From the NCBI GenBank assembly GCA_951406725.2, contig OX597814.1, positions 207,018,001 to 207,082,000 of the forward strand: a stretch of DNA of 64,000 nt. The letters run 5' to 3'. The notes below the pieces were generated by a model. The model was not told the origin of the DNA and made no database searches. It saw only the letters and a program-made list of their open reading frames with translations. The stretch is from Octopus vulgaris (lineage: Eukaryota). The position numbers and the translations under genes were made by a program. Positions 6,802-46,159 of this stretch are shown here, piece after piece; positions within the stretch are counted from its first letter, which is position 1, and every line of letters begins with the position of its first letter.

Positions 6802-6938
6802 ACACTGCATCATCGAAAGCATCCCTTCCTGGTTCACAACAGGAACCCTCTTCTGTGGTACACAGAACTAATGTGGCATCTGGAGAAAATGCTGGCATTA
6901 AAATAAACCTAATGATTGATTCAATTTCTAATGTATCT
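6802..6938 (+). CDS. Macro-PARP (PARP14/15-like) exon A1: linker and macrodomain start
   Basis: TTTTTTTCAG| acceptor, |GTGAGT donor; 137 nt, phase 1 to 0; TASSKASLPGSQQEPSSVVHRTNVASGENAGIKINLMIDSISNVS. Confidence 0.85.
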
Positions 6939-7258
6939 GTGAGTAAATAGATTCACGTAACTTATTTATATTTAATTGTTATTTCATTTTCAAATGAGGA
7001 ATCATTACAGTTAATTAAAACATTTAATCATTACAGTTAATTAAAACATTTAATTAAAACGTTTTCTCAATCTAACTCAAACATTTTATTTCCTTCACAT
7101 CTGATATCTTGAATATATCTTTTGCTAACTTTAACAACCTCAGACTTACTACAGCCATTCTGTAGAGCCTTTCTTAACAACAATATCAACTGCAACAATG
7201 TATCTCTCTTCTCTCCATGGAATGTTCCTTAGCTGTTTATTATTAATTACTTTTGTAG

Positions 7259-7486
7259 GTTGATGTCATCGTTAACAGCAGCAATGAAGAACTCCAGCTT
7301 GACAGTGGTGCTGTCTCCAAATCTATTCTCAATGCTGCTTGTCTAGAGATACAAGATGAATGTAACCAGAAATATCCTCGAGGTATTTCTACGTCTGAAA
7401 TTGCCATCACTAAAGGATATTGCCTCAAATGTAAGAATGTATTTCATCTGGCATTACCTGAGTGGGATGAAAATTCCTCTGATTCA
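7259..7486 (+). CDS. Macro-PARP exon B1 (macrodomain core)
   Basis: TTTTGTAG| and |GTAAGT; 228 nt; VDVIVNSSNEELQLDSGAVSKSILNAACLEIQDECNQKYPRGISTSEIAITKGYCLKCKNVFHLALPEWDENSSDS, a BAL/PARP14-type macro pattern. Confidence 0.92.
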
Positions 7487-7518
7487 GTAAGTATCAATCA
7501 TATTATATTGATTTATTG

Positions 7519-7733
7519 GAAGGCAGTGAGCTGGCAGATATGTTAGGATGCTGGGCGAAATGCTTAGCAATATTTCATCTGTCTTTACATTCTGAGTTCA
7601 AATTCCACCAATGTCGACTCTGCCTTTCATCCTTTTGGGTCAATAAATTAAGTACCAGTTGTGTATTGGGGTCAATCTAATCGACTGGACCCCTCCTACA
7701 AAATTTCAGGCCTTGTGCCTAAAGTAAAAAAGG
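7519..7733 (+). mobile_element. tRNA-derived SINE (Meta-like core) with 14-bp target-site duplication
   Basis: TSD ATATTGATTTATTG at 7505-7518 and 7734-7747; empty site in cassette 3 near 37823. Confidence 0.85.
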
Positions 7734-7837
7734 ATATTGATTTATTGAAACAGTTAATAATTGAGAAGAATCTTATGCATGTTCATTATTTATATTATTA
7801 CATTTGACGGATATTTGTCCTCATCTTGTTTGTTGTT

Positions 7838-7883
7838 AACACAACGTTTCAGCTGATATACCCTCCAGCCTTCATCAGGTGTC
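7838..7883 (-). ncRNA. Minimal type I hammerhead ribozyme motif
   Basis: GACAC-CTGATGA-AGGCTG..CAGCT-GAAA-CGTT-GTGTT on the minus strand. Confidence 0.65.
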
Positions 7884-8181
7884 TTGGGGAAATTTCAAAC
7901 CTGGGTTCTCATTCCTAAGGTATTTTTCGATGTTATTATTATTATTACTATTCAGGTCACTACCTGGAATCAAACTCGGAATAAAGGGGTTAGTAGCCCG
8001 CACTCTCTATCACCATGCCGTATGCCTACAGGCATACGGCATAGTGGTTAAAGTGTGGGCTACTAATCCCTAGATTCTGAGTTCAATTCTAGACAGTGAC
8101 CTGAATAATAATAATAATAATAGTAATAATAACATTGAAAAATACCTTAGGAATGAGAACCCAGCTTCGAAATTTCCCCAA

Positions 8182-8227
8182 GACACCTGATGAAGGCTGG
8201 AGGGTATATCAGTTGAAATGTTGTGTT
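8182..8227 (+). ncRNA. Minimal type I hammerhead ribozyme motif (decayed)
   Basis: GACAC-CTGATGA-AGGCTG..CAGTT-GAAA-TGTT-GTGTT. Confidence 0.5.
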
Positions 8228-8700
8228 AGCAACAAACAAGATGAGGACAAATATCTGTCAAATGTAAATAATGTACATAATTCCTCATCTCTTAAATATA
8301 GAACTGTATCAGTTATATGACTGATAAATAAGACTATATTAAAACATATTTCTGTGTTTTACTGTCTGTATTGGTGAGTTTTTCTCTGTCATGGCACGAG
8401 CACTAGAGAGGTTGTCATGTCCTCAACAACACTAAAGACTCCTCTTGGGTCTGCATTGTCTCTCTTCATTCACCAACCATTTCACACGGTGGATGGGGTC
8501 TGTTTTATTGTAGCAGCATCATGAGTGAGGTTGCCTTGTCCCTTGCAGGACTAAAGAGTGATAGGAATGACAGATGTGTTTAGAAGTGGTAGGAGTGAGA
8601 GGAGGATATATTTATTACAACTTAATGGTTTCTTCCTGTAATAAGAAAATAATTTAATAAAATGTTCATTAACAATTACTAAACAATTATATTTTATTAG

Positions 8701-8928
8701 ATTCTGGCAAACTTGACTCAAATAATGACCATTTGTCTGGAAGAAGCTGAGAGAATGGGTGCAAAAAGCCTGGCATTTCCTATATTAGGGGCTGAAATGA
8801 AATACCCCATTGAAAAACTACCCAGAACAATGTATGAAGCAGTGAAAAACTACTCGGATCAAAAATCAAGCCAGATCAAAGATGTTTACTTTGTGGTTTT
8901 ACCTGAAGAAGACACAGAAATAGTAAAG
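8701..8928 (+). CDS. Macro-PARP exon C1 (macrodomain C-terminal half)
   Basis: TTTTATTAG| and AAG|GTTGGT; 228 nt; ILANLTQIMTICLEEAERMGAKSLAFPILGAEMKYPIEKLPRTMYEAVKNYSDQKSSQIKDVYFVVLPEEDTEIVK. Confidence 0.92.
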
Positions 8929-9239
8929 GTTGGTTGATGGATTTGTTGTTTTATGTTGATATTTTTGGAATTCATCGAAAAAAATATTCTGCAACAAAGG
9001 AAGGAAATAGAAACAAAAATATAGTACTGTGCAAAAGTCTTTGGCCACTTTAAACAATTGTAAATTTCTAGTAATTGCCAACTTATAAGTGGATTTGTCA
9101 CATTGTGTTTGTTTACAGATGAAACATTGGCCCTGTTGGAGTTAATTCCATACTTAATCATTGTATTTTGTAGTAGAAGTTCCGAATGAGAGGGGAAGAT
9201 GTGATGAGGCTTTCTGACAAATTCTCACTTATATGTTGA

Positions 9240-9470
9240 CACGTTAAAAGCACCATTCGACCGTGGCCGTTGCCAGCCTCGCCTGGCATGTAAAAAGCAC
9301 CCACTACACTCACAGAGTGGTTGGCGTTAGGAAGGGCATCCAGCTGTAGAAACATTGCCAGATCAGACTGGGCCTGGTGCAGCTTTCTGGCTTCCCAGAC
9401 CCCAGTTGAACCGTCCAACCCATGCTAGCATGGAAAGCGGATGCTAAACGATGATGATGATGATGATGAT
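9240..9470 (+). mobile_element. 3' tail of an RTE-type LINE or derived SINE with (GAT)n end
   Basis: GGTTGGCGTTAGGAAGGGCATCCAGC..(GAT)n, same as the 3' end of the RTE at 48620-49980; copy at 24179-24409. Confidence 0.8.
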
Positions 9471-10269
9471 GAATGCCACCTTAGAAAAGAGCTCGTATTG
9501 GTCACAAAACTGGTCAGAGCAGAGACATTAAAGAGAAGGAGAGCAAATGAATCCTCACACGGGACTGCACTAAGACATTCACAAAATGCTGCTTACACAG
9601 CCAATGCGAGAGCCATGGAAGCGAGGGGCAGAGTAGTAGTTGCCTGATCAGAAATGCTGCATTAACAGCTTCATTACACACAAACCTGAGTCAGTCACAG
9701 CACATTATTCTTTGTAATAGGGATGCTACATCAACTGCAGCCACGTGAGCTGCAGAGAATGAAGAACAGCATGCCATTCGATAGTCTTTCTTTTTTATAT
9801 GTATTTTCATCAATTTCAAGTCATTATATACCCATATGTTTCAAATTTTCAAAGAAAAACCAGTAATTTTCTCTGTCTTTGCAGTTGTGACATATTTCAA
9901 AAATATTTTGTACATTTTTGTGAATTTTGGTACATTTTGGTATGGAATTTTATACATTTTCCAAAAAAGCTTTGGCAGCCCAAGTTGTTAGACTAGAAAA
10001 TAAGTGTTCTTAGAATGACGAAGCATTCAAACCCTTTGCAACCCCAAGTACCTCTGCTTGTAGTAATTATAATTAGCAGTACAAAACGAGGATTAGATGT
10101 ATGCCAGGCTGGACAAACAAGAGTTGATTATCTGAACATTTTCTTTTACTTACTTCCACTTCATGAGGCAAGGATTGATGAGTTAAGAAATGGAAGAATG
10201 GTAACCCTTAACGCTCTCGAGCCATTGTACAGGACACACTGAGAGAAACAAAAGCCCATAAAACAATAG

Positions 10270-11000
10270 GAGTTAAAAGTCATCGATAAGAATGAATGAT
10301 GCAACATCAAATGGAAAAGTGTCTACATCCAGTTTAGGACACAAACAAACTTGTGTTGCAAGAGGGAAGAGATATGGCACCGTTGAGGTGAAATTTTTCT
10401 GACAGGAGAAGGCAAGGAAGCACTTCACTTTGAACCTAAAAAATGAAACCTGCTTCTGTTACCCATATACTTGGGTTAGAGAGTGGTGAAAATAAAAACT
10501 ACAGACATACCACCAGAAATAAACATCTGCTGGTTGGTGGCAGTTGTCCTTCTGGACATTGAGGGTCACACAAACATCGTACGTGTGTGGAAAGTTGGGC
10601 AAGACTTAGAGTTGTGGGTGCAAATAGATTACAAAACTTAATAAACAATTCTGGACATCATAAATTTACCACATGACACCAAACTCCAGATACCCTTTGA
10701 AGGTAGAAATCTGATGTGTCACCTATGTGGGGACACAAATCATCTAAAGGTTTTCTGCCCACAACAAATGAGAGAAGGAGACCCTCACTTCTGCCAACAC
10801 CATCACCACTACCACCACAACCACAACAGCAGATGCAAGTGACTACTATGGATATAAAAGCAACTGCAACAGGAATCACAGCAACACTGACAACAAGAAC
10901 AACAGCAACAAACAGAACAGAGAACTCACAAACGTCTACGGCTTTAATATGCCAGGGAGTAGCAAAAGCAACAGCATCAGAATTTGCCAAAACATGAACT
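10270..11000 (+). mobile_element. Degenerate gag/ORF1-like retroelement fragment with CCHC zinc knuckle
   Basis: CHLCGDTNHLKVFC (CX2CX4HX4C) at 10717-10758; copy at about 25210-25940. Confidence 0.5.
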
Positions 11001-11689
11001 TTATTCTTAGCAAAAAAAACAAAAATCTCCTCTAAACATGTCCATTCCATGTTTGTATTTGTCTGATAGGTACCGACTGGATTTATTGAAAGTGCCAGTA
11101 TGGATTTTGGATGAATCGCATCAGGTCATTCAGATCGCATCTTGACAGGATGTTCTGTAGGTCAGTAGATAAGGATAGTGTAAGTTGTCCACTTTTAAAA
11201 ATCATTGGCTACATCGACCACGAATGTATGATTTCTACAGTTGACCTAGATAGGCTTAAGAAGGCAGGAACTCAGCTACTGGGAGCTGAATGTGTCACTG
11301 TTGGCATGTCAGGCTTACAGAGACTGGATTAAAGAATTAGTTAAGCATCGACAGGGGCAATCATCGACAACACATGGTAGCTTGCACTGAAAAGACCAGT
11401 TAGAGTAAAATCAATTGCCAGTAAAGATTAGTGTTAAAAAGAAATAAAATAGAAGGGAAATTAGAAACTTAGAAAAGGCAATTAGAAAATGCATCATAAC
11501 TGACATACTGGCTGTGAGATTGGCCCCTGGGTCACTTCTTCAATGCTAAACACAAAAGTTGCATTGTCAGAGCTAAAATGCTTGCACTGAGACAAGTCAG
11601 AATGAAAATCATCCAATGGACCTCAGTGGCAGAGCTCCAATACTAGCAACAAAGCCACAATTTGGTTTTTGGTGGACCAAAATGGGTAC

Positions 11690-12356
11690 ATGGTATTCGA
11701 ACCCAAGCAGAGGTGTGTGGCATTTCAACAGCACTTCACCCAACAGTTTGGAATGAATGGCAGTCCAGAACGCAGGATGAATTTCAGTGCTTACCTTGCA
11801 GACATACCATAACTCTTGGTAAGTGGGGCATAGCCTTACAAAATGTTGATAACAGCTGCAGAAATATAGGATGTGATAATGGGTTGCATAGGTGGGGGAG
11901 GTGCAAATTGCTTGATTTGGATGGTCTGCTCTATGGTCTTTACTTTATATGCCACACTTATTTGGTGGTCTTTCAGCAGATATCTACCATGACTGGCTGA
12001 AGAATAGGAGAATTTCCAATTCTGTGAGTCGAAGAACGGTGACACTGCTAATAAAGGGCCCAAACAAGGATTCTTCATGACTACATTGCATCCCATCAAG
12101 CTCTCCCCCTACCCTATTTACCAGATTTAGCACCTGTTGACTTCCATCTATTCCCCAAATGAAGAGGCAATCAAAGGTTGCTATTTTAATACCATTGTCA
12201 TGATTCAGAGGAAACTGTTGAAAGTCCTCGATCTGCTGTGCAGTTTATTGCTGTGCAAGGTAACTATTTCAAAGAAAATGATTTTTAAAACATAGGCAAA
12301 TAAGTTATTTTTTATTGAACATGATTAGTCCGGAAAGTTTTTGATAGCACTTTGTA
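11690..12356 (+). mobile_element. Mariner transposon remnant
   Basis: Decayed xPYxPDLAPxDFHLFP motif at about 12105-12155 and a mariner-like TIR ending in TA at 12326-12356; 5' boundary uncertain; copy at about 26630-27297. Confidence 0.65.
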
Positions 12357-12879
12357 AACCAATATTGAAATAGAAGAAACATTTAAGACATGGAAATGCA
12401 TATTAGTTTTTGAATAGAGTCTACTTTCATAGAAGCACATTGCCATCTTGTGATGTCTTTAAAGAGGGACTTTAGTTCATGAAACTGGTGAAGAATATGG
12501 AAAAAATGATGGAGAGAGAAATAATCATTCTACTGTTTTTCTGAAACGATTGAATGAAGGAAACCAAGGTAGACGGTGCCTGTGAGTTGTCTAGGTTGAT
12601 TGTGTATTGGGGAGGCTTATTTCATTTTCTGCCTACCAGACCTACTCACAGAGCTTTGTTTGGCCTAAGGCTGTAGTTAAAGAGACTTTCCGAAGGTACC
12701 ATACATTGAGACAACTTAAATTAAGGCAATTAAAAGTAATAGCAACAGAAGCAGTATTAATACCAAAAGGCAATCTTTATATCCAACTAAATGTGAATGT
12801 TGTGTTAGAATACCAAATACTGCCTTATTTACCTTGAGAGGACCTCTCATATGGACACACAGTCCATAAAATTTTTTCC

Positions 12880-14110
12880 ATACAATTTAATATTTTTGGC
12901 ACTTGTATTCTTTTCCTCTCACTTGTATGCTTAGGTTCAATCACCTGCTGTGGTGTTGGTACTTGGAACGTATCATACAACCATTCCATTGACTCCTCCA
13001 ACTTCTTTGGTTCACTTTCCATGAATCTCTTTTTCAGAAGGTTCCTGTGTCTCTTTTGTATGCCTTTTCTACTTTTTACCCAATACATTATTTTTACCTA
13101 TTCATTTGGTAATTACGCCATCTTCCCAACTCTGCTTTCCATTCTTGTATGCCCTCATATACACCTTTTCACCAACTTTAAAGAGTCTTGCTATGTCTTC
13201 CCTGGCACGTTTTGTTTTCTTGCCAGGGAGCAATTTATCAAAGACTAACTTAACTTTCCTTGCAAACATCAGCTCCACTGGTGAGCTACTGGCTGGTGTA
13301 TTTGGATTTGGCGTCACACAGTACACTCTTAAAAATTGTTGTAGAGCTACCTCATTTGTAACTTCCTTATTCAACTTTCTTTGGGTTCTGTTGAAGGTGA
13401 TGACAAAGCGTTTTGCACTGTACTTTATATGTTCTACCGTGAATGTTTCACAAATTTTTTATAATCCACTAGACACAAAATGCATTCCATTGTTAGACAT
13501 TGTCTTGTCTGGGTGTAAAAAATATATCACAGTTGAGGGGGTTGGTTTTTTTTACATTTTACAGTTTCAGGCCATCTTGAGAAGCTATCAACTACCACTA
13601 AGTAGTAAGAACCATTTAAAGGACCAGCAAAATCGGCGTGCAGTCTTCACCATAGACCAATGTTTAGTTTTTATTGTTGGCAATTTTTTGTTTCATTTTG
13701 GCTTACATACCAGTGTTCCACTCTGTTTTACTGCATCAAACCTTTGACTGATCCAACTATATTTCCACACAAAGCACTTATGGGTGTATTCCATACTTTG
13801 AATAATTCCATCCACCCTGTGCCGAATAAATTAACTGAACTTTTTAACACAAATTTTGCCTTTTTTGTTTGCCTTTTTCATTTGACCTTGAAATGTTACA
13901 TTACATACAAATTCACAGAAAAAATATAATCTTTTTCCTGTTACACCATGTACTGCCTTTTTTGATTTAATTAATTTCAGCTTACCAACATATTTCCACG
14001 GTTTTTCATTTATAATGGTGATATCACTGACCATGTCCAACTGCATTTTAACTGATTTTCACCTTCATGAATTTCCTCATTGTTATATTGCCAATTTCTT
14101 CTGATGGCAT
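12880..14110 (-). mobile_element. Internally deleted Gypsy remnant (protease and integrase pieces)
   Basis: MQLDMVSDITIINE (decayed protease LDTG-like motif) and ALQQFLRVYCVTPNPNTP..SPVELMFARK (integrase C-terminus). Confidence 0.75.
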
Positions 14111-14179
14111 ACTATTTATTCTTTCTCCTTTGCTGTACCATTTTGTCATCTGCATTCTACAGTGCTTCTTTATTTGTCC

Positions 14180-16850
14180 TACTCTGTTGGACATGCACAC
14201 TGACACTGGCATGGAAGCATACTGGCTTCATTTCTTTCTACTCTACACATGTCTTCGGCTATCACAGCCCATGTTTCAATGCCATGTAGTGTAATTGTTC
14301 ACACACAAGCATTATGCAATCTGCCTTTCACTCTGAGGGAGATGCCCTTTGTTGTCAGTAGAGGTAGAAACTCTCTGAACTTTGCCCAGCGTAATCTTTT
14401 TCTCACAGCTATGCTCTTGGAGTATCCATCTTCGCTACTAACTTGGTCACCCAGGTAACAGAAGCTATCTACTACCTCTGGTATACCCCTAGTTGATGGA
14501 GCCTAAATTCTGCACACTTTCAGCGTTTATTGTACCTGTATATCTTCCACACACAAAAGCTATTTTTCCCTGTTAACCTTCCTCTGGCATTGCTGCATCT
14601 TTTATATTTCCAAAGCTTACACCAGGTCCATCTTATGGAATTTCTGCCCATGCCTTTTTTAAAGATCAAATAAGGCGATCTACCTGAAGGGATTTGTGAT
14701 TTGTTTGCCTTCCTACTTACTAGGACTTTGGTTTTTGCTAGATCAACTCTAAATCTCTTCAATTCTAAACCTTGCTTCCATACCTGAACCTTCTTTAGTT
14801 CTTGTAGTGATTCTACTATGAGAGCATAGAAGAGCTCCCAGGGAAGCCTGTCTAGAATTCCTCCGTTAATACCTGGAGGACTATGATGAACAAGCGGGGT
14901 TGAGCACCCTGAATTATTCACTGTACTCGTTACCAACCCTCACCTTACTGATAACATCCCTGTACAGGGCTTGTACAACTCTTACCAACCATTCATCTAT
15001 CCCTAGTTTCCGCATTGACCACCAGATAACGGATCAGAGAATTCTGTCAAAAGTTTTCTCCATGTCAACAAAAAGCCAGGTACAGAGGTTTATCTTTGGC
15101 TATATATTTCTCCTGCAACTGTCTTACCAGAAATATAGCATCAGTGGTGCTTCTGCCTGGCACAAAACCAAACTGCACTTCATCTAAACTAATTCCCTCC
15201 CTAAGTAGTTGGGCTACGGCCCTTTCCATGACTCATCCCCTGATCCAACTATTTGATACCTCTGTAATTATTTCTATCTAAATCATCACCTTTACCCTTG
15301 TAGCTGTTGACTATGGTGCTGCTACACCAGTCATTGAGTATGATTCCTTCATGAACTACCTGATTTACAATATGTGTGACTCAACTATAACCCACACCAC
15401 CAGATATTTTAAGCATCTCAGCAGTGATTACTGATGGGGTGGGGGCTTTCCCTGTCATCAAACCCTTAATTGCTTTATCCATCAAGGTACTGTCAATTTG
15501 GATAGACTCCCCTCCTCCCATTCATTCTCCACATTCAGCAGTCTTTCATAATAGCATTTCCATGCCTCTTTCTTTGCAGAATCATTAAACTCAAGTGCAC
15601 CATCATCGATGCACATACATTTCTCTCCTATAACATCACAATTTTATCTCACTCACTGTCTTACAATCTGAAACACATCAGTTCTTTGGTCCTCACATCA
15701 CTGAACAGAGGCAAACTTCTTTTCTGCTTCTCCCTTGGCTAGATATACCTGTCTCCTAGCTTTCTAGCTTCCCTTCAGGCAATTTAAACAGTTTCCTGCT
15801 ATCCCCACTCCTCCAGGTCTTCCAGGCCTGTTTCTTTGCTTTAATGGCCCTGTCTACTGCATCGTTCCACCACTATGTTACCCTAAGTCTGGAAGGGACT
15901 TTGCACCAGCTGCAGATTTGGTCTGTGGCACTCAGCAAGCTGTCTCACAGGAATTCCTAGTTGCCCTGTATGTCACAAGTCTGTAGCTCCTCCTCCTCCC
16001 TCTCATCAGATTTCTCAGTTTGGATGTCCCTAAATCTCTGACCATATGAGGGGTCCTTAAGCTTCCAAATTCTTCTTATCCAGATTGGTCTGCTTCTTGG
16101 CATCCTTCTGGCCTGGAGTCTAAAGACATTATTGATTAGTCTATGCTGGGGGGTACATTCTTCACCAGGGAAAGTCTTTGCATTTAAGAGCAACCATACA
16201 TCCCACTGTCTGGTCAGGATGTAATCAATCTGGTTAGCAGAAACACCTGACTGATAGGTTATCAGGTGGCTGATTGGCTTCCTGAAGTTGGTGTTGCAAG
16301 TCAGTTGGTTATTTGCATCACAGAACTTCAGTAGCCTTTTTCCATTTTCATTTCAGGAACCCATTCTATGGTTCCCATGTACACCATGGAAATTATTGGG
16401 CAGCCATCTGGCATGCCCATTTGAATCCCCCAGCCATGAAGTCGAGATCTTTGTCACTCATCTTTGAAGTAGGCTGCAGAAGAATATCACAAAAGTGGTC
16501 TATCTGAACATTTGGTAGGCCCACTTGTGGGATGTAGGCAAATATAATTGTAGCCATACAATTCTGTAAGACTAGCCTGAACTTAAGTATTCTATCACAT
16601 ATTCTAACTACCTCTATGACCTTATTCACCCATTTATTATCTAGAAGTATGCCCACCTCACTTGCCCCATCACTATTACCTTCCCAGAAGATTTTATACC
16701 CTTGCGTCTTGCCTGTGAGGAATCTGACTGATGCTCCTTTCCACCTTACCCCTTGAATGCAACATATCTCAACATGCCTCCTTTCAAGTATCTCTACAAT
16801 CTAGTTAGACCTACTTTTCAGTGTGTCTACATTGTGGGTGCCAACTCTAA
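14180..16850 (-). mobile_element. Degenerate RTE-clade LINE (APE + RT)
   Basis: APE segment GILLDNKWVNKVIEVVRICDRIL (16393-16656), QHRL motif, and RT/C-terminal pieces homologous to ORF 49319-50011. Confidence 0.85.
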
Positions 16851-17617
16851 AATTCGCACAGCTAAAACTTTTGTGTGTTTGTTAACTCCTCTTCAAGTTT
16901 CTATTAACCCCACATGAATTGGTTTATCCTGTTATAATTCTTAAAATGTTGAATTGTTTTAATGCCTATTTTGGGATACAGTATATTTAGTAAAACTAAT
17001 TAAGACACAACTATCTCTGACCACCTACCGTGTACTCTGGTACTTCACGTACTTCTCTTTACTTACAGTGACTAGGTTATTCCATTGGTCACATGGGAAG
17101 GGTATACCATTATTACTAATTCCCAACAACACTTGTACTCTGGTTTTGTTACTGAAATGTTTTTGGACATATGAGATGCAAGAAAAATAACCTCAACTTC
17201 AACATTCTTGATAGACATTTCAACAGAAAACACAAGACTCAGCAGTTTTAATCAGAATGGTGAGTGGAGAGAAGAAACAATACAACTTCAGCTACATGAA
17301 GACACCATTGCCACATGTTTAACTTCACTAACATCACATCAGTGGCCATGTAAAGTGTGGGAGTTTTTTCTGCTGCATTCACTATAATACCATATTGACA
17401 TAGGTTTCATGTCTCTCAGAAGACAGGCAGGCCATACACAGAATAGCTTTGATCTGAATGACAAAGTAATTTTCCCCTCTTGTCTGTTTCTGATTAGAAA
17501 TGAACCATTAAATATTTCAAATATTTTGTCATGCTTTTGTTATATTAAATCTCTTCTATTTGCAAAAATGAAAAAATTAAGCATAAAAATAATTCTGATT
17601 GTTTTTTGTTTTAACAG

Positions 17618-17663
17618 AAATTTCGTGAATATCTCTTAAAAACTGAAAAATTTCATTCAAAAG
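17618..17663 (+). CDS. Macro-PARP exon D1 (terminal helix of macrodomain)
   Basis: TTTTAACAG| and AAAG|GTAAAT; 46 nt, phase 0 to 1; KFREYLLKTEKFHSK + G, joining exon A2 as GAC. Confidence 0.8.
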
Positions 17664-18225: not shown

Positions 18226-18268
<43 letters not shown>

Positions 18269-21647: not shown

Positions 21648-21683
<36 letters not shown>

Positions 21684-34903: not shown

Positions 34904-35004
34904 GGCTTTCTTATTATCTATCCATGCTATTGTTAAATTTTTCTTTCTAGATTTTACTTTATTTAGAACTGAATTATCTGTATATAATAGATCATGTGCT
35001 TCTC

Positions 35005-36125: not shown

Positions 36126-36799
36126 AGCTCACATTTGGTTGAACTCATAAACATACATTAGCCTTCACCCTTCATACACTACACCATCATTTTATGTGCT
36201 ACATAATTACTACATTACATAGGAGATAAACCCTAAGTAGGGACGGGAGAGCATTAAGCCTTTGGAAATGTTCAGGGGAAAGACATCCGATAGAGGTCTG
36301 AGAATAAAGACTTCTGTGAAACAGCAAACACTCTGGCTGCTGGTGTGGAATAATAATAATAATAATAATAATGAGATAGAATTGGACATTTGCATTCTTA
36401 ACTAGAGCTATAAGCAACAGTTTTCAGTCAGCCAAACTATGACAAAATTAAATGAATGAATGGCTGAATGGCAATAATAAATGAGTGTAAGAGAAAGGGA
36501 GAGCTGGATTGAGCATAGGGATCTTAAGTTTTTTTCTCGAAACATACAGCTTGGAAGACTATGCTGACATACATAATGAAATAATAAAGTAATCATAATT
36601 TGCACTGTAAAAACAGGTTTTAGATGTGTGCTAGGTTGGAAATCAAAGTTGCTCGGCAAGAGAGATCAATACTACGAGAGATCAGTACTAGTCTTACAAA
36701 GAGTAAGTCCTGTAGCTGATTTGTTCAACTAGATGTGGTGTTCTAGCATGGCTTCAGTGAGATGACTGAAACAAATAAAAGAATATAGATACATGTATA

Positions 36800-37105
36800 A
36801 AAAGCACCATTCGAGTGTGGTCGATGCTACTACCAACTGACTGGCTCACGTGCCAGTGACACATAAAAAGTACTATTCTAGCATGGTCAGTGCCAGTGCT
36901 GCCTGATTGACCCACATGCCAGTGGCACACAAAATGCGCCCACAACACTCACGGAGTGGTTGGTGTTAGGAAGGGCATCCAGCTGTAAAAACCTTGCCAG
37001 ATCAGATTGGAACCTGGTACAGCCTCCTGGCTTGCCAGTCCTCAGTGAAACCATCCAACCCATGCCCGCATGGAAAGCAGGCATTAAACAATTATCATCA
37101 TGATG
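36800..37105 (+). mobile_element. RTE 3' tail repeat
   Basis: Same family as 9240-9470. Confidence 0.7.
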
Positions 37106-37158
37106 ATATGTATACATAACATACAACATACACCTTGATATTTGTTTATTTTTTTCAG

Positions 37159-37295
37159 ACACTGCATCACCAAACCCATCCCTTCCTGGTCCACAACAGA
37201 AAGCAGCCCCTATGACACCCAGAACTAATGTGGCTTCCGGAGAAAATGCTGGCATTGAAATAAACCTAATGACTGATTCAATTTCTAATGCATCT
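37159..37295 (+). CDS. Macro-PARP exon A3
   Basis: 137 nt, AG/GTGAGT; TASPNPSLPGPQQKAAPMTPRTNVASGENAGIEINLMTDSISNAS. Confidence 0.85.
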
Positions 37296-37576
37296 GTGAG
37301 TAAATAGATTCACTTAACATATTTGTATTTAATTGTTATTTCATTTCCAAATGAGGAATCATTACAGTTAATTAAAACATTTTCTCAATCAAACTCAAAC
37401 ATTTTATTTCCTTCACATCTGATATCCTGAGTATATCTTTTGCGAACTTTAACAACCTCAAACTTACTACAGCCATTCTGTAGAGCCTTTCTTAACAACA
37501 ATATCAACTGCAACAATGTATCTCTCTTCTCTCCGCGGAATGTTCCTTAGTTGTTTACCATTAATTACTTTTGTAG

Positions 37577-37804
37577 GTTGATGTCATCATTAACAGCACC
37601 AATAAAATCCTCCAGCTTAATGATGGTTCTATCTCCAAATTTATTCTCAATGCTGCTGGTCCACAGATACAAGATGAATGTAGCCAGAAATATCCTCAAG
37701 GTATTTCTACATCAGAAATTGCCATCACTAAAGGATATAACCTCGAATGTAAGAATGTATTTCATCTGGCATTACCTCCCTGGGATGAAAATTCCTCTGA
37801 TTTA
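37577..37804 (+). CDS. Macro-PARP exon B3
   Basis: 228 nt, AG/GTAAGT; VDVIINSTNKILQLNDGSISKFILNAAGPQIQDECSQKYPQGISTSEIAITKGYNLECKNVFHLALPPWDENSSDL. Confidence 0.92.
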
Positions 37805-38403
37805 GTAAGTATCAATCATATGATATTGATTTATTGAAACAGTTAATGTTTGAAGAGAACCTTATGCATGTTGTGTGAGAATCATAAAGCAAATGTCAGC
37901 ATCCTGTTTAATATTTGTTCTTCCAAGTTATCGTTGGAAGGAAGCAGAAGATATCGATGAACAGGACACTTTTATATATAAATAGAAGGAAAAAAGCCTC
38001 ATGGCCTAACAACAGTTATGTGACTGATAAATAAGACTATATTAAAACATATTTCTCTGTTTTACTCTCTGTATTGGTGAGTTTTTCTCTGTCATGGCAT
38101 GAGCACTAGAGAGGTTGTCATGTCCTCAACAACACTAAAGACTCCTCTTGGGTCTGCATTCTCTCTCTTCCTTCACCAATCATTTTACACGGTGGATGGG
38201 GGTCTGACTTATTGTAGCAGCAACATGAGTGAGGTTGCCTTGTCCCTTGCAGGACTAAAGAGTGATAGGAATGACAGTTGTGTTTAGAAGTGGTAGGTGT
38301 GAGAGGAGGATATATTTATTACAACTTAATGGTTTCTTCCTGTAATAAGAAAATAATTTAATAAAATGTTCATTATCAATTACTAAACAATTATTTTTTT
38401 TAG

Positions 38404-38631
38404 ATTCTGGCAAACTTGACTCAAATAATAACCACTTGTCTGGAAAATGCTGAGAGAATGGGAGCAAAGAGCCTTGCATTTCCTATAATAGGATCTGGAG
38501 TACTGAAGTACCCCATTGAAAAACTACCTAGAACTATGTATGAAGCAGTGAAAAGCTACTCAAATCTAAATTCAAGCCAGATCAAAGTTGTAAACTTCGT
38601 TGTTTTTCCTCCAGACAAAGAAATAGCAAAG
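38404..38631 (+). CDS. Macro-PARP exon C3
   Basis: 228 nt, AG/GTTGGT; ..CLENAERMGAKSLAFPIIGSGVLKYP..VNFVVFPPDKEIAK, with canonical SLAFPxIGxG motif. Confidence 0.92.
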
Positions 38632-39464
38632 GTTGGTTGATGTATTTGTTGTTTGTTGTTTGATGTTGATATTCTTGGAATTTACCAAAAACCAATATTC
38701 CGCAATAAAGAAAAGAAAATAGAAATGACCCTCATAATAATTTACTGCCCTTGTTCCATACTTTCATGGGTGCAACATTTTGACTGGCTCCAATGAGCCA
38801 CAAGGGTTTATTGAACCCCAGTGTCTGCTTTGGCATGGTTTCTATGGCTGGATGCCATTCCTAATGCCAACCACTTCACAGCATGTCCTGGGTACCTTTC
38901 TTCATGTTACCTTTAATGCTGTTCATTATATTTTGTTGTGCTTTATCCTTTCATTATACCATTTCCCATCACCAAATTCTTGCTTCTGAAATATTCCATT
39001 GTAACATTTGAAGCTAAGAATGTTTTGTTTGTTGTTGTTGTTGTTGTATCCAAAACCAACTCTACAAGAATTGCTAACACTGAAGGTCTTCTTTGCAGTT
39101 TGGCTGCTGATCTTATTGTTCTTATTTAACCCCGAGTCGGTTCTGATTCAGCAGATTTGAAGTCAGTGATGTCTGTCTTCCTTTCACTCTTTTCTTCCTC
39201 TTCTTCCAAGCTGCCACAATCAAGACACATTTCACAATTCCACACCAATAATCTCTGTCTGCACCCCCTTACTCTGCTTCTTGTTCTGTGTCTTTTCCAA
39301 GAATATCAATGTAACTGAGTGGAACTCAACCTCCTGTCGGAGTGTGGAAATCTCCAAAATATAAAATCTGATCTGGTCAAGAGTTCAACAAAGTAGCAGG
39401 GGTCAGCAAACCCTATTCTGTGTTTGAGCATCGATAGCAGAGATGGGTGGAATATCAACTTCAT

Positions 39465-39845
39465 CATTGTTTAACATCTGTTGTCCATGCTGGATTGGGT
39501 TGGATAGTTTGACTGGGCTGGCATGCTGGAAGGCTGTACCAGGTTTCAGTCTGATTTGGCATGCTTTTTTACGACTTGATGCCCTTCCTAATGCCAACCA
39601 CTCTGAGAGTATAATGGGGTTTTTATGTGCCACTAGCGTGGGTGCTGTTTGCATGGCACTGGGTTGGGTTTATGTCCCATTGGTATGGGTGCAAATTTGC
39701 ATGAAACTGGTATCTGCCACAGCTGCAATTTTCCTTGGCTTGATGGGTCTTTTTCTCAAGCAAGACATAATACCAAAAGTCTTGGTCATTACCTCTATCA
39801 GGCCCAACACTCAAAAGGAACTCAGCTGTTTTGCCTCCAGGAAGC
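39465..39845 (-). mobile_element. RTE 3' tail repeat
   Basis: GATGCCCTTCCTAATGCCAACCAC family motif. Confidence 0.65.
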
Positions 39846-39879
39846 CCAATAACTTACTGCTTTCTTCATAGAGAAGCAT

Positions 39880-40950
39880 TGATGGCAAAAACATTAGGAG
39901 ACTAATTAAGCAAAGTTTTTAATCAAGATTTTGAGATTGTAAATTTTATAAAAACAAGACTAGTAAAGTGATGTTTATTCAAGCAGTTTTGTATTGATGT
40001 GGATTCACAAAACAGACACCTGCTTTTGCACAGAGAGGTGGCTTTCAAAAGGGAAAGCACTTGATCGTGTATATGAGTTACAAGAGCTACTCAAGTTTTT
40101 GAAGAAATGGAACAAAACCACTTTTGTGAGCTCCTTCGATGTAAATGTTGGATTAGCAGATTAGTGTATTTGGCTAATATATTTCAGCACCTCAGTATTT
40201 TGAATACTAGCATGCAAGGAAATGAAGAAAACATTTTGATATCTACTGATAAAATGAAAGCATTTCAGAAAAAAACTACTTATCTGGAAGAAAAGTGCTA
40301 CTAAGGGTAATCTGGAAATGTTTCCTTTGATAAGTAGAACTTGCATAAATGACATCTTTCCTTTAATACTTGAAAATTTCACAAATTTGGAAGATAAATT
40401 AAATTATTATTTTCCATCACTTAACACTGAACAATATGCTTGGATTTGAAATCCATTCATTGAAATTTCAGATGATGCTAGTTTAACATTAACCAAAGAA
40501 GATTAGCAGTTATATCCACCAATGGTGGATTGAAGATTAAATATAAAGAATCTAGTCTTGAAAAATTTTGGATTTCAATCAGAGAAGAATACCAGTCAAT
40601 ATCCTGAAAAGCTTTAGCCATTTTACTGCAATTTTCAACATCATATTTATTCGAATTAGGATTTTCCATTCTCACCAACATCAAGTGCAAAAAGAGAACA
40701 AATCTTCAGTCTATTGACAAGGAAAAGAGAGTTTGTTTATCATACATACGTCCCAACATTGAAGAAATTGCTAAGACATGCTAGGCTTATTCTTCACAAT
40801 AGTGCAAAACAGATGAGGAATAATGGTAGATACCCTTGTTTTCAGTTATTTCTTTTGCATTATACTTCTTAGTATTTTGTGTGTAGTGTGCCCACAATTT
40901 TTTGTAAGGCTTCAAGTGTGCCACGGCTTCTAAAAGTTTAATAACCACTG
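39880..40950 (+). mobile_element. hAT (Buster/Charlie-like) transposase remnant with right end
   Basis: LVYLANIFQHLSILNTSMQG; dimerisation region FWISIREEY..ILLQFSTSYLFELGFS; terminus ..AACCACTG (reverse complement CAGTGG). Confidence 0.85.
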
Positions 40951-41376
40951 GCTTATATATTTTTGCATATAATTCTTTTATTATTATTATTATTATGGTT
41001 GTTATGTATGATATCATTTCATCCTGGTTTTAGCACTTCAGCATGGCACAACTTGAGATTTTAAAACTAGTTTATATAAAGTTATTTCAAAACTAAAGTT
41101 AAAGATGATCAATTTTTTGTCTTCTAATAATAATGGAAAAAAGAAGGGAAATAGAGGGACAGGGAGAAATAAAGAGAGAAAAACCCTCTTATTTCATTTT
41201 GAAATACATTGCATTTATTTTTTTCCTTTATTTATACATAGCTCTAATATTAATTTGCCTTGTATACTAGTCCTTTATATAGTGACATTTCTCGTCCTTT
41301 CTACAGGCAAAATAGAAACCCTTGTCTTTTTTCCAGGCGCAGATTTGGAATTTCTGGCTGCATTTTCTTTTTGCTT

Positions 41377-41567
41377 TGCAGCTGGACTGGCACCTGTGCA
41401 GGTGGCATGTAAAAAATGCCATTTGAGCATGGCTGTTGCCAGTACCGCCTAACTGGCCCTCGTGCCGGTGGCACGTAAAAGCATCCAGCTGTAGAAACTC
41501 TGCCAGATCAGATTGGAGCCTGGTGCAGCCATCTGGTCCGCCAGTCCTCAGTCAAATCATCCAACCC
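41377..41567 (+). repeat. RTE-tail fragment, left arm of an inverted pair
   Basis: Near-identical reverse complement of 42058-42249. Confidence 0.8.
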
Positions 41568-41875
41568 TGCTTTCAGTTGTGTTTGTTTGTCTGTGGACAA
41601 GATATCACGAGAATCGCTGAATGGATCCGGATAAAACTTTCAGGGATGTTTGGCACCATGGCTAGCACAAACTAATCTGGTACCAGACAAGGATTCTGGA
41701 TTATGTTTTCCTCTTTTTTTTTTACTTAATTTTTGAAAGCGAAGGGTCCATTTTTAGTATTTTCGTTTGTGAGAGCAGTCGAGTTTATTTCAGATATTCT
41801 CATTTCAAAAATCATCTCTGACTAATCGTTCAGAGGACATTGGTGTTGCCTTGGCACTCTCTGATTGCTTTTGTT
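41568..41875 (+). mobile_element. Possible Helentron-associated (DINE-1/HINE-like) non-autonomous element
   Basis: TTCAGTTGTGTTTGTTTGTCTG..GGATAAAACTTTCAGGGATG..CCTTGGC..CTCTCTGA pattern; family assignment from memory only. Confidence 0.35.
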
Positions 41876-42014
41876 TTTATTTCATCTCACCATGATATTT
41901 TTTTAATGTTTATGCATCAGATCTCTTCATGGATGTGTAGATAGATATATATGGATGTGTAGATTGACTTTATATATTCACTCTCTGTATATATATATGC
42001 ATATGCGTATGTAT

Positions 42015-42420
42015 ATCATCATCATCATCGTTTAACGTCTGCTTTCCATGCTGGCATGGGTTGGACAATTTGACTGAGGACTGGCGGACCAGATGGCTGC
42101 ACCAGGCTCCAATCTGATCTGGCAGAGTTCCTACAGCTGGATGCTTTAACGTGCCACCGGCACGAGGTGCCAGTTAGGCGGTACTGGCAACGGCCATGCT
42201 CAAATGGCATTTTTTACATGCCACCTGCACAGGTGCCAGTCCAGCTGCACTGGCAACAACCTCACTTGAATATTTTTTCAGGTGCCACTGGCACAAGTGC
42301 CAATAAGGCAGTGCTGGTAATGATCATGCTTGAATGGTGCTTTTCACGTGCCACCAGCACAGGAGCCAGTCAGCTGCCCTGGCAATGATCATGCTCAGAA
42401 GGTGCTCTTAGTGCTCCACT
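42015..42420 (-). mobile_element. RTE 3' tail with (GAT)n end
   Basis: (CAT)n at 42017 followed by the family motif and sub-repeats. Confidence 0.75.
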
Positions 42421-42769
42421 AGTACCCCAGTTGAACCGTCCAACCCATGCTAGCATGGAAAGCGGACGTTAAATGATGATGATGATGATGATAGAATACT
42501 TAAGTTCAGGCTAGTTTTGCAGAATTGTATAGCTACAATTATATTTGCCTACACATCACAAGTGGGCCTACCAAATGTACAGAAGGACCACTTTTATGAT
42601 ATTCTTCTGCAGGCTACTTCAAAGATGAGTTACAAAGATCTCGCCTTAGTAAACATAGTACCAGTTACGCAATGGGGTCAATGTAATCGACTTAATCCCT
42701 TTGTGTGTCCTTGTTTGTCCCCTCTATGTTTTGCCCCTTGTGGGTAGTAAAGAAATATATATATATAGC

Positions 42770-43680
42770 AGAGTATTGTAGATCGCTTGAAGCGTTGTGT
42801 ATTGTTTATGAAATATAAAGTGTCTTGAATGGCGCAACAATGCAGAGTGGACTATAATAACTAATTATAATTTAATTATCCATAGTCTGATATAATATTT
42901 TGGAATACAAAAATTCTTTCTTCCGATATCGCTAGAAATTGATCTGATCAAGTCACTACTATAATCGGTTCTCCAATGGTTACTGAATTTTTTTTTCGGA
43001 AGTGTCTCTGCAGTGATCTCATGAAGCTCCTTCTGGAGTTCCTCATGGGAAGTGCATGAGGACGGCTATGTCTCAAGTGTGTTGGCATATCCGCAGCGGT
43101 GCTTCTAAGTTATGTATTATACATGCAATCATGAGCATGTTACCAGAAATGCACTTACTTGCATCCAGATGTAGCTAAATAATATATTCTTTGCTAATTT
43201 CCAGCCTGTTGTTAATTTGGGGTGCTAGTCTTTCTTTGAAAATAGCTTCCTTAATTCTTAAATTACCCAAATTTCTTTCATTGGCCTCAGTTGTGACTGT
43301 TATGCTTTTGCCGGTATTCCGGCATCTGTCTAGATGTTTTCTGAAAAAGGAGGCTCTCGTGTTCAGATGTTCTTTGATGTGGACGTGTAACAGTCTTGTT
43401 GTGCTACCCACATAGAACTTGTTGCATCTGTTGCATTGTATTCTATACACAACATTTAGCCATTGGCATAAATCTGTGTCATGGACGGGGCAGTTAGCTA
43501 GTGTGCATTGATTGCTGTCCATTGCTCATTTCTTTGCAAGGTGTCCTCTCAGAGAGGGGCCGGAGTGGGCTAGCTGTATGTCTAATCCTTCTCTTCTTAT
43601 GGTTCTTCAGGTGGCTGTAGTTATCCTCTCACTGTAGTTATCCAGTTGAAAATTCTGGGCATCCTGTTAGCAAATGAAGT
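42770..43680 (-). mobile_element. Penelope-like element, GIY-YIG endonuclease region
   Basis: ORF 43175-43522 NVVYRIQCNRCNKFYVGSTTRLLHVHIKEH..LRIKEAIF. Confidence 0.85.
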
Positions 43681-43769
43681 GCGTAATGGTGATTAAATAA
43701 TATCAATAAATATTCCAAATGTCTGTTTTGTTATATATATGTGTAAAGTAATGTAAAGTCTTGTGTAAA

Positions 43770-44083
43770 AAGGGTAAAGACCCCCCCATCCTTCGGTCAT
43801 GAATGACCATGGATTGCACCTAGAAAGCTTCCCTCCAAAGCAGAAGTCTAGGCAAGGTTGTTTTGTGGGAGAGCAGCCAGTCGCCTATGCATACCAGTTT
43901 CTCTTTTCCATACCATGCCCAAGAGAAAAGACTGATACAGGTTGGCACCAGTGATGCTGCAACTCATTTCTACTGCTAAGTGACTGGAACAATGTGAAAT
44001 AAAGTGTCTTTCTCAAGAACACAACACAGGAATCAAACTCGCTACCTTATGATTGTGTGTCTGATGCTGTAACCACTGAGCCA
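43770..44083 (-). mobile_element. tRNA-derived SINE
   Basis: Minus-strand GGCTCAGTGGTTAC..GAGTTTGATTCC head and GTGTTCTTGAGAAAGACACTTTA core shared with 62700-63030. Confidence 0.7.
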
Positions 44084-45529
44084 GGTGTACAACCAAAATT
44101 GTCCACATTTTAGAGTCAGCTTTAAACCTTTGTATCTCAGGAATGCTTAAAGATAACTTAATGAAACTATCAGAGGTTTTTCCAATGCTATTGGACTCTA
44201 CTTTGAGTAAGAAAAATGTTAATTACTCACAAAACTTACCAGAAGTATCGTTATGAAGTTGATTATGGACGAAAATGACATTTTCATGAATAATTAACCA
44301 TAGCTTTGAATGGAGATCTCATAAAGGATTGGAATAAATTTTAAATGGAAGCTTAAAATTTTATTTCAAAGTGCCTGAGAAAATTCTAACCAAAATTCTA
44401 TCTTTTAGGCATCAAGAGTTTCTCCTCTTTTGGCAATGCCTTCCTCAACCCACTTCCTGACCATACCACAAGCTTTCTTAATGAATTCTTCATCAATGTC
44501 TTCCTCCTACGTCCTACATCATAGGGTTTTTGAGGGTTTGAAGGTTACTGTGGGGCTTCTCACAAGCTTTTCTAACCAGTTCATTCTAGATACTGAAGTC
44601 TAAAGGGTTAAAATCAGGTGATGAAAGGGGTCAAGTGTTCCTATCCCCAAAATTTTTGTACCATTGCATTTGTGTGAAAAGGAGCTTCATCTTGCTGGAA
44701 TGTAAATTTGAAGTCCTTAATGATTTGGGGTTTCCCTTGTTTCTTGCTTCTTGATTCACAAAGAATCCAGGTCTTTACATCTTTCAAAACCTGAACATAA
44801 CAAACTCCTATCAGTCTCTCAGCCTTATCAAACATGATCAGTTGCATCTTCTTACCATCAAAGGCTGTACAGGCGAAAATCATCACCTTGGCAGAGCTTG
44901 TGCACCTGAAAATGACTCCAGGATTGTTTCACTTTGTTCAAGATCCTCTCCAACCTTCTAACATTTTGTTCTGGAGTAACAAGATACCTCATAGGTCTCA
45001 CATGCGATTTCATTTTCAAGTCCCTTATCACTGCTCTTTAAACTGTCATAGCTGAAACTCCTCTCTCATATGCTAAGCATCTTTTGGATTGAGTTGGATC
45101 TGTTCTGATTGATCTCTTCAGCTCCAGATTGAAATGATGAGCCCTCTTGTGGATATGACCTCCAGATCCAGTTTTTTCCTTCCACTATCCCCACTTTCTC
45201 AAACTTATTAACAATTCTCTTGATGGCTCTTGAATGGACATTGAAGATAGAAGCCAGAGAATGAATGTTGGTACCATTACTTAAGAGCTGGATGATCTTA
45301 GCCCTTTCAACATTGATCAGTAAGGAAGACATGGTGAGGTTGGCAGAAACGATTTCAGCCTGTTCTAGCTAAGTATCTCAATGGATATTTCACTGATTCT
45401 TACAAAAACTTGTGTCAATATGGCCAGACATCTTATTTGGAAAACATGGGAAATTGCAAATCGATTAGTTTATTGGTTTGGGGAAGTTTTAAGAATTTGC
45501 GAGTGTAACAGTTTTGCTGATACACCCTG
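44082..45529 (-). mobile_element. Tc1/mariner-superfamily transposon (maT-like), degenerate
   Basis: HTH-like ORF 45066-45332; FQQDEAPFHT and SPDFNPLDFSI catalytic motifs; terminal CACCCTG-TA at 45523-45531 with a decayed partner at 44082. Confidence 0.8.
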
Positions 45530-46018
45530 TATATAGACTATTGTGAATGTCTTGTATTTATATACTCTACTTTGTATGCGTAGATGGATGTAAGCAAGCT
45601 GTATATAAACTGAGCGTCATATAAACACTTTCTGTATACAATATGTGTTGGGGACAGGAAAAGATTGTTTGGCTGGACCCGTTCCTTTTCTTCTTTCTCC
45701 TTTTATCTATACCCACAGTGTTGGGTACACATCTGCAGATATACTCTGTAGGACAGTATATATAGCATTGAAGTAAAGCACTGTTGACATACCAGTAATT
45801 CACTGAGATTTACTCAAAGCCAGTCTGTTTCAACAGAAATGTTCTTCCTTTGTTTTAATCAGTTTTGAAAATAATGAAGAATTAAGTAAAATCGGTTTGT
45901 CGTTATTAAGCTGGTGTTTGGACACAACATGGAATCTTGACTAATTTTTTACTGTTACATAGAAAATCAATTATGTCTTTGATTGAGTGATGATAAATTA
46001 TTTGTTTGTTTCTAACAG

Positions 46019-46069
46019 AAATTTAATGAATATTTCCAAGAAATTCTGGCAAATGGTTCTGCTGCATAA
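46019..46069 (+). CDS. Macro-PARP exon D3, ending in TAA
   Basis: TTTCTAACAG| acceptor homologous to D1/D2; KFNEYFQEILANGSAA*; donor CAG|GTAAAT retained at 46073/46074. Confidence 0.7.
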   Translation, partial: KFNEYFQEILANGSAA

Positions 46070-46159
46070 TCAGGTAAATTGTTTTTTTTTTACTTTTGTT
46101 GAATATTATTTGGGAAGAAATTAGTGCCATTTGTCAGCAGTTTTGATTTTATAATGTTG

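Follow-up and report, generated by a model that had tools for sequence, protein, structure and literature searches.

The window, i.e., the whole 64,000-nucleotide stretch of Octopus vulgaris DNA analysed here, raises the question of what protein its tandem array of macrodomain exons encodes and how the array arose. The initial annotation described three A(137)-B(228)-C(228)-D cassettes entered and left in phase 1, the first two of 639 nt, and the exon coordinates, splice ends and reading frame agree with this description. The spliced array comprises 12 exons with AG/GT ends (positions are those of the window, except for the first coding exon):

G000:C1:206,999,141-182, first coding exon
6802..6938, + strand, exon A1, 137 nt; linker and first two strands; phase 1 entry
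7259..7486, + strand, exon B1, 228 nt; loop 1 and helix 1; fast-evolving exon
8701..8928, + strand, exon C1, 228 nt; short loop-2 subtype
17618..17663, + strand, exon D1, 46 nt; last helix; phase 1 exit
21705..21841, + strand, exon A2, 137 nt; identical to A1
22162..22389, + strand, exon B2, 228 nt
23640..23867, + strand, exon C2, 228 nt; short loop-2 subtype
32577..32622, + strand, exon D2, 46 nt; identical to D1
37159..37295, + strand, exon A3, 137 nt
37577..37804, + strand, exon B3, 228 nt
38404..38631, + strand, exon C3, 228 nt; canonical G-x-G loop 2
46019..46073, + strand, exon D3, 55 nt; in-frame TAA 4 nt ahead of the phase-1 donor

Every cassette is in phase 1 at entry and exit, which confirms the proposed frame symmetry of the module. 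Cassettes 1 and 2 (639 nt each) differ at 6 of 639 positions and cassette 3 is 648 nt long; the shared length of C1, C2 and C3 (228 nt) masks two offsetting codon indels. After splicing, 639 open codons are followed by TAA in D3, and the predicted product of the gene, which consists of the three cassettes preceded by a short first exon, has 644 residues. Phase-1 boundaries are common to the first coding exon, the macrodomain 1 (MD1) block, the cassettes and the first ART exon, so that cassettes could be gained, lost or skipped in frame. A search for further cassettes of this gene 5′ of the window, where their presence had been thought worth checking, found none, and no RRM, KH or MD1 exons were found between the first coding exon and A1.

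Pfam Macro matches and the fold agree that the units are macrodomains. Exons B and C each match Pfam Macro separately, and the profile check suggested for the spliced product is borne out by the public model P0051, which spans A1 to C3 and contains three Macro (PF01661) stretches (E-value 1e-53, 180.7 bits, above the curated cut-off). By sequence, the best single-domain PDB match is macrodomain 2 (MD2) of human PARP14 (PDB identifier 3q71) with an E-value of 3e-25, followed by MD3 (3e-12) and MD1 (1.5e-10). A model of the O. sinensis orthologue from an alignment-based AlphaFold2 run (pLDDT 87.8) has an RMSD of 1.6 Å to 3q71 over 187 columns. The tested cassettes score 163-189 bits with the MD2 profile as against 117-133 bits for MD1/MD3, and in the tree all 17 octopod cassette domains examined group in a single clade within MD2. 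Tree and profile scores thus rule out an MD1-MD2-MD3 series, and since all three macrodomains are MD2-type, the array does not have the ancient three-macrodomain layout of PARP14, in line with the initial annotation. An MD3 query of the genome returned only cassette exons (best E-value 0.011) and one weak, stop-ridden match.

Splicing of the exons was examined in four runs of contigs from four studies, which are RNA-type by guess and may derive from paralogs. The A-B joint (6938>7259) and the C-D joint (8926>17616) occur in all four runs and the B-C joint in two of the four. A D-to-A joint, as sought in RNA for the D1-A2 junction, is also present in these RNA-type contigs, but it is not specific to D1-A2; we rejected it as proof of that junction since a D-A3 join is 93-94% alike and a paralogous join agrees at 21/24 plus 50/50 nt.

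The duplicated DNA at the locus extends well beyond the exons:

3289..17953, + strand, genomic repeat unit 1; contains cassette 1 and portions of intron 1 and of the next intron (self-BLAST, alignment)
17954..32897, + strand, genomic repeat unit 2 (alignment; contigs have loose ends at 17954)
24223..47147, + strand, 23-kb block, 98.3-98.7% identical to G000:C1:9,394,315-9,417,152, ~198 Mb away

The units of the tandem repeat (14.7-14.9 kb) differ by 134 substitutions in 14,633 aligned bases (0.92%), and their junction (17953/17954) is gapless, free of microhomology and enters a dispersed repeat. B1 carries five changes relative to B2 inside 12 nt, and these match two paralogs at C1:5.44-5.47 Mb. 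The near identity of cassettes 1 and 2 would fit the recent duplication that had been proposed for them, but an older local split from cassette 3 is not the whole picture, as cassettes 1/2 and 3 represent two family-wide subtypes moved by long-range duplication. It is unlikely that the duplication behind cassettes 1 and 2 is false, i.e., two alleles placed in tandem in what is truly a two-cassette gene, and the family-level accordion would stand even so. The distance between the units does lie within the heterozygosity reported for the species (>1.1%; PMC6472339), the O. sinensis model carries two cassettes, and other near-identical cassette pairs occur at 7.56/8.53 and 7.59/8.56 Mb. However, the window contains no N gaps, unique DNA is bluntly joined at the junction to the interior of a dispersed repeat, and a clearly separate paralog 198 Mb away is about equally close (0.76-0.94%), which indicates that duplications this young really occur here.

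The array is not a lone one but belongs to one of ~20 such genes. The genome holds 51 B, 51 C, 17 ART and 19 MD1 exons, the ART exons having been found with a family exon as query after being missed by a Pfam PARP genome scan, and the 51 cassettes are distributed at 1-7 per gene. Neighbouring genes of the cluster retain RRM, KH, MD1 and ART. Copy number differs by lineage, as had been claimed, with three cassettes here versus two in the O. sinensis model and seven versus five in a neighbouring gene. The entire expansion could be thought an assembly artefact, a reading we rejected because the units of the seven-cassette neighbour are 94-98% identical, beyond allelic distance, and the same family is present in O. 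sinensis. The two subtypes, exemplified by cassettes 1/2 and cassette 3, run through the whole family, and its exon trees are mosaic: B, C and intron trees, built from short stretches only, share 0, 0 and 1 well-supported splits.

The subtypes differ in the ADP-ribose pocket. All 50 of 50 B exons carry the loop-1 Gly, aligned to that of human MD2, which we take to be G1044, and a Ser here aligns to a human MD2 position that is presumably an adenine contact. The G-x-G of loop 2 contacts phosphate. Cassette 3 keeps this motif, whereas in cassettes 1 and 2 the loop is one residue shorter and lacks the second Gly. This short form is found in 16 of 30 internal cassettes and in 0/20 last cassettes, and is absent in 34/34 non-octopus second macrodomains. 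The proposed role as an ADP-ribose reader is therefore doubtful for the duplicated cassettes 1 and 2, with their shortened phosphate-binding loop, and judging from the sequence these two may perhaps not read ADP-ribose. Hydrolase activity of the MD1 type is recognised by Asn/Ser and Gly flanking loop 1 and a hydrophobic-aromatic pair in loop 2 (PMC10221186); the cassettes keep the Asn in 48/50 but depart from this signature in having Ser/Ala at the next loop-1 position and no loop-2 aromatic.

Exon B evolves fast, with strong positive selection at individual sites. Comparison of M2a with M1a gives 2dlnL of 143 with omega ~5 at 27% of sites, and loop 1 occurs in 35 distinct versions among 50 copies; the mean pairwise dN/dS is 1.19 (95% interval 0.75-2.0). 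The ART and MD1 exons also have elevated omega (1.1-1.4, with smaller LRTs of 13 and 18), and fast evolution is thus not limited to the cassette. We consider it very unlikely that cassette number drifts neutrally in a repeat prone to recombination and that the selection signal reflects gene conversion, a reading with which the mosaic trees and the mean dN/dS intervals that include 1 would be compatible. Null simulations with recombination (n=13) gave 0-8.4 each versus 100.9 for the real 32-sequence set, exon B diverges more than the intron (dN 0.118 versus a distance of 0.056), and loop 1 is hypervariable while almost no variation is seen at 30% of the sites in exon B.

What the gene can encode depends on D3, in which TAA occupies a position that encodes Ser in the D exons of paralogs. 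The initial annotation's account of the frame omitted this stop, and the frame ends ahead of the ART exons. The same stop is present at two other O. vulgaris loci (three in all) and in O. sinensis P0013, and the O. sinensis RefSeq model terminates there. Three ART exons (G000:C1:207,171,994-207,176,390) have open reading frames, retain the residues of the His-Tyr-Ile motif and are entered in phase 1. An unrelated gene is present in three or more copies within the 108 kb that separate the stop from these exons, and no other family exons were found in between. No usable Atlas match was obtained for the nested downstream gene.

As the stop sits upstream of further exons, the mRNA may be degraded, and the gene could be a young processed-out relic, namely a segmental duplicate that yields no protein owing to nonsense-mediated decay. 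The stop is premature compared with the paralogs, D3 retains a good donor ahead of intact ART exons, the 2.4 kb 3′ of D3 contain no AATAAA and only two ATTAAA, and MD1 and RRM/KH are absent. We nevertheless regard such a relic as unlikely, given that all 12 exons and their splice sites are intact, that the identical stop recurs in three loci and a second species with a RefSeq model ending there, and that a clear lesion is seen in only 5/51 cassettes. While the stop blocks ART in the same frame, the phase of D1 and D2 could reach the distant ART exons; were either spliced to ART, a macro-ART enzyme would also be made and D3 would switch between reader-only and writer isoforms. The intact, phase-1 ART exons and the interval free of other family exons would suit such splicing, D is joined directly to ART in the paralogs P0012 and P0002, and RefSeq isoforms of one paralog in O. 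sinensis skip cassettes. The 108-kb gap with its unrelated genes speaks against it, as does the lack of any protein joining this cassette type to ART among the 50 + 27 matches listed, and we judge the switch to be quite improbable. RNA editing, known from cephalopod biology, could conceivably allow read-through of the D3 stop.

The reading that we favour, and consider reasonably probable, is that of a truncated octopus PARP14-like member in which a phase-1 MD2 module has been repeatedly copied, and which likely encodes the three-macrodomain protein without writer or eraser, a predicted binding-only innate-immune sensor or decoy. The gene shares the MD2 fold and sequence class with PARP14 (ARTD8/BAL2), and its cluster neighbours keep RRM, KH, MD1 and ART; unlike PARP14, octopus genes combine MD1 with 1-7 recent MD2 copies, MD3 was not found, and the present gene is MD2-only. 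Turnover of PARP14 genes has been documented (PMC4038475, PMC4245714, PMC10221186): new genes arise by partial duplication, the hydrolase MD1 is lost, macrodomains are under positive selection and paralogs lie in clusters (six in a sponge, four in lancelet and eight in a microbat). PARP15 and partial PARP14 duplicates were likewise born through partial duplication and lost the hydrolase MD1, but in octopus a single genome contains 51 cassettes as well as 17 or more loci that bear ART, domain number varies within genes, and PARP15 keeps MD2, MD3 and ART. Internal MD2 duplication recurs in other invertebrates: PARP14/15-like models from Babylonia, Batillaria, Haliotis, Saccostrea, Patiria and Glandiceps contain tandem MD2-class copies that group together in the tree, though the proteins seen as representatives carry 2-4 copies each, and the short loop-2 subtype is octopus-only here. 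Among public models, CAI9716701.1 (O. vulgaris hypothetical protein) is the same gene with A1-C3 joined but has other first and last exons, the last entering the nested downstream gene, and XP_029635758.1 (O. sinensis PARP14-like X2) is the same gene with two cassettes and the same C-terminus; the labels of both leave the repeat, the stop and the family unmentioned.

The family likely gains and loses modules as an immune sensor repertoire, its immune role being predicted by homology to vertebrate macroPARPs. Exchange between clusters, by unequal crossing-over and by gene conversion, would shift cassettes and exons, and diversifying selection would act on loop 1 and the surface round the pocket. 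The last cassette, with its canonical loop 2, would bind mono-ADP-ribosylated targets, and the internal short-loop cassettes would have little or no affinity for ADP-ribose and offer variable protein-binding surfaces. As a far more speculative extension, octopus MD2 might form a combinatorial immune receptor repertoire, with conversion and alternative splicing reshuffling ~50 phase-1 cassettes whose loop-1 surfaces are hypervariable; internal pocket-altered copies would then be decoys for pathogen proteins, a canonical reader would always lie beside the transferase, and stop-truncated genes would supply free decoys or dominant regulators. The position rule, with the altered loop inside and the canonical loop last, is open to direct testing. 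To our knowledge, it has yet to be established for human PARP14 MD2 how loop 1 and loop 2 govern target choice, and these ~50 close macrodomains are a natural panel on which to address the question. Few diversified gene families are, as far as we know, on record for cephalopod immunity, and the macroPARP family described here, in which 51 fast-evolving MD2 modules accompany no fewer than 17 transferase loci and MD3 has apparently been lost, is a concrete candidate.

All 12 cassette exons proposed in the initial annotation were found in the window with canonical ends throughout, and the 639 nt and phase-1 entry and exit claimed for cassettes 1 and 2 were borne out. Cassette 3 measures 648 nt and contains a TAA inside exon D3, so that the spliced frame of the cassettes ends after 639 residues. 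The first coding exon lies 19 kb before the start of the window; it supplies 4 residues, its end is in phase 1, and between it and A1 there is no other exon of the family. The predicted product has 644 residues. The gene is real and already annotated in outline, and its exons are up to 95-100% identical to O. vulgaris and O. sinensis proteins that carry the names hypothetical or PARP14-like. The public O. vulgaris model (P0051, CAI9716701.1) already joins A1 to C3 and differs at its ends, and the O. sinensis PARP14-like X2 model (P0013, XP_029635758.1) has two cassettes and a C-terminus exactly at the D3 stop. Introns of the window hold broken retroelement fragments (1240-2983, 12825-14058, 15957-16800 and 47237-50077), which we take from their ORF translations to be LINE-like and LTR-like. 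The window also harbors an intronless gene (59942-62165, + strand) that a frameshift near 61.5 kb interrupts. It belongs to a hydrophobic family that is specific to octopods and has no Pfam match (O. sinensis member 740 aa, 98%); further copies, at G000:C1:207.088-207.112 Mb, lie between D3 and the ADP-ribosyltransferase (ART) exons, and UniRef names two O. bimaculoides members STRA6-like.

A profile search found three Pfam Macro stretches in P0051, in agreement with the macrodomains first claimed. The best single-domain solved relative is the second macrodomain (MD2) of human PARP14, and the AlphaFold2 model of P0013 (67-sequence alignment; pLDDT 87.8, pTM 0.54), which has two macro folds and a low-confidence linker between them, superposes on it (PDB identifier 3q71) at 1.6 Å. 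Separate profiles for macrodomain positions one to three (MD1-MD3) were made from 54 of the 62 ART proteins that carry three macrodomains, leaving out eight that were internal duplicates or the closest relative; each of the three window domains has its top score with the MD2 profile. In a FastTree tree of 172 domains, drawn from 34 of these 62 proteins, nine octopod and 13 multi-macro proteins, the octopod cassette domains (17/17, including Argonauta) form one clade with support 1.0 among the MD2 domains; the first macrodomains of octopus fall in MD1, and the deep supports are moderate. By profiles and tree, the array is thus no MD1-MD2-MD3 series, as expected if it is independent of the ancient three-macro layout. 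An MD3 query of the genome, for which the best candidates were scored, matched nothing beyond cassette exons, none better than E 0.011, and a single weak hit with stops; judged from sequence, MD3 appears to be lost from O. vulgaris.

Genome searches over 2.8 Gb accepted 51 of 59 B candidates, 51 of 54 C candidates and all 17 ART candidates as exons, plus 19 MD1 exons among 48 that were scored; they are situated at 5.3-9.5, 206.1-207.2 and 215.8-216.6 Mb of contig C1 and also on contig C29. From exon order we infer gene limits that give about 20 cassette-bearing genes of 1-7 cassettes apiece, with a clear lesion in 5 of the 51 cassettes. The D and linker exons share phase 1 with the MD1-block end and the first ART exon. 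One neighbor is organized as follows:

G000:C1:206,575,017-206,771,764, seven-cassette neighbor gene: RRM, KH, MD1, seven cassettes, ART

This neighbor (206.57-206.77 Mb) has units 94-98% alike and a single gap of 100 N. The probable counterpart in O. sinensis, whose RefSeq isoforms skip cassettes, has five cassettes against seven, and the orthologue of the window gene two against three; the count thus varies between related species, in keeping with the initial annotation. In the neighbor, the seventh A exon has 138 nt (a frameshift), an additional degenerate A-like exon is present in five units, and a minisatellite with an 88-bp period, about 4 kb long, lies in two introns. A full-length PARP14-like gene, P0009 (G000:C1:206,805,349-206,950,194, - strand), has a head-to-head arrangement with the window gene and a tail-to-tail one with the seven-cassette gene. 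Several MD1 exons at 216.28-216.61 and 206.076 Mb of C1 have no adjoining cassette, and from these MD1 may have been tandemly duplicated too. Two near-identical two-cassette genes 1 Mb apart (C1:7.56-7.60 and 8.53-8.57 Mb) are either recent duplicates or an uncollapsed haplotype. Two nearly identical cassettes in P0022, an Argonauta model, both with canonical loop 2 of the ADP-ribose pocket, reflect either independent duplication or homogenization in another octopod.

Contigs of four runs that are guessed to be RNA, taken from four studies, join A to B, C to D and D back to A in 4/4 runs and B to C in 2/4, and as such show that cassette-to-cassette splicing occurs in the family. The D1-A2 junction put forward earlier is matched by this D-to-A joint in every run but is not singled out by it, because D-A3 and a paralogous join also fit the 93% limit.

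The window gene and a four-cassette gene at C1:9.32-9.42 Mb have first exons and an intron 93-97% alike and a common 23-kb 3' block at 98.3-98.7% identity. The D3 stop is also found at C1:9,416,023 and C29:31,775,367, the paralogous D exons having a Ser codon there, and 108 kb beyond D3 the same strand has three intact ART exons. In the C1:9.32-9.42 Mb paralog, the stop-bearing D exon (9,416,023) is followed 51 kb on by a second, open D exon (9,467,313) and then by linker, WWE-region and ART exons, and a choice of short versus full isoforms is possible. The tandem units around cassettes 1 and 2 (window 3289..17953 and 17954..32897) differ by 134 substitutions over 14,633 bases and 18 indels, with neither gap nor microhomology at their junction. 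We consider it unlikely that this repeat is a false duplication, for which there is room since the distance lies within the heterozygosity reported for the species in PMC6472339; however, a distant paralog of the window gene is about as close as the units are to each other. Five B1/B2 differences are clustered in 12 nt, and B1 agrees there with two paralogs at 5.4 Mb, a pattern suggestive of a short gene-conversion tract.

The loop-1 Gly is present in 50/50 cassettes, and the hydrolase signature, as defined in PMC10221186, is incomplete in them. A short loop 2 (minus one residue, second Gly absent) occurs in 16/50 cassettes, all internal, whereas last cassettes are canonical in 20/20 (Fisher p 3e-5; copies not independent). 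The O. sinensis ART models, isoforms counted, are canonical at the last position in 19 cases and short in 1, and inside are canonical in 5 and short in 21; G-x-G is kept in 34/34 non-octopus second macrodomains. From the role of loop 2 in macrodomain structures, the short form is predicted to weaken ADP-ribose binding. The window gene reads short, short, canonical, so the proposed ADP-ribose reader fits the retained loop-1 Gly and the canonical loop of cassette 3, but less so cassettes 1 and 2, which lack the second Gly.

Custom codon-model code was applied to exons B (49 unique of 50) and C (45 unique of 49). M2a versus M1a gave 2dlnL of 143 for exon B, with omega about 5 at 27% of sites and 16 sites above 0.95, five of these in loop 1, and 24.9 for exon C. 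Null simulations (n=13; positive selection absent, 3-6 blocks on conflicting trees) reached 0-8.4 versus 100.9 in the real 32-sequence exon B set. Mean dN of exon B is twice the adjacent intron distance, and its mean dN/dS is 1.19 with an interval that includes 1. For the ART and MD1 exons, omega is 1.1-1.4 (LRT 13 and 18).

In human PARP14, MD1 erases, MD2/MD3 read and ART writes (PMC10499325), metazoans ancestrally have the three-macro layout (PMC10221186), macroPARPs show positive selection and gene turnover (PMC4038475), clusters exist in sponge and lancelet (PMC4245714), and skin mucus proteomics of octopus lists a PARP14-like protein, the locus not given (PMC11431876). The text examined of PMC13224862, also on macroPARP clusters, mentions neither octopus nor molluscs, and our search of main texts, including a minority of subscription papers, found no account of an octopus macroPARP expansion. 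Internal MD2 duplication recurs, as in octopus, in models from snails, abalone, oyster, sea star and acorn worm, which makes the octopus case less novel; new to specialists would be the size of the family, an MD3 that appears lost, selection at loop 1 and the confinement of the short loop to internal cassettes. Phase-1 modules, as observed here, would let unequal crossing-over, conversion and exon skipping alter MD2 number with the frame intact. The window gene probably encodes a protein of three macrodomains that has neither writer nor eraser; it is predicted to serve as a sensor or decoy by binding modified proteins or proteins of pathogens, and by homology an immune role is predicted. Taken as a whole, a phase-1 MD2 accordion together with such a sensor or decoy protein is, in our judgment, a fairly probable reading.
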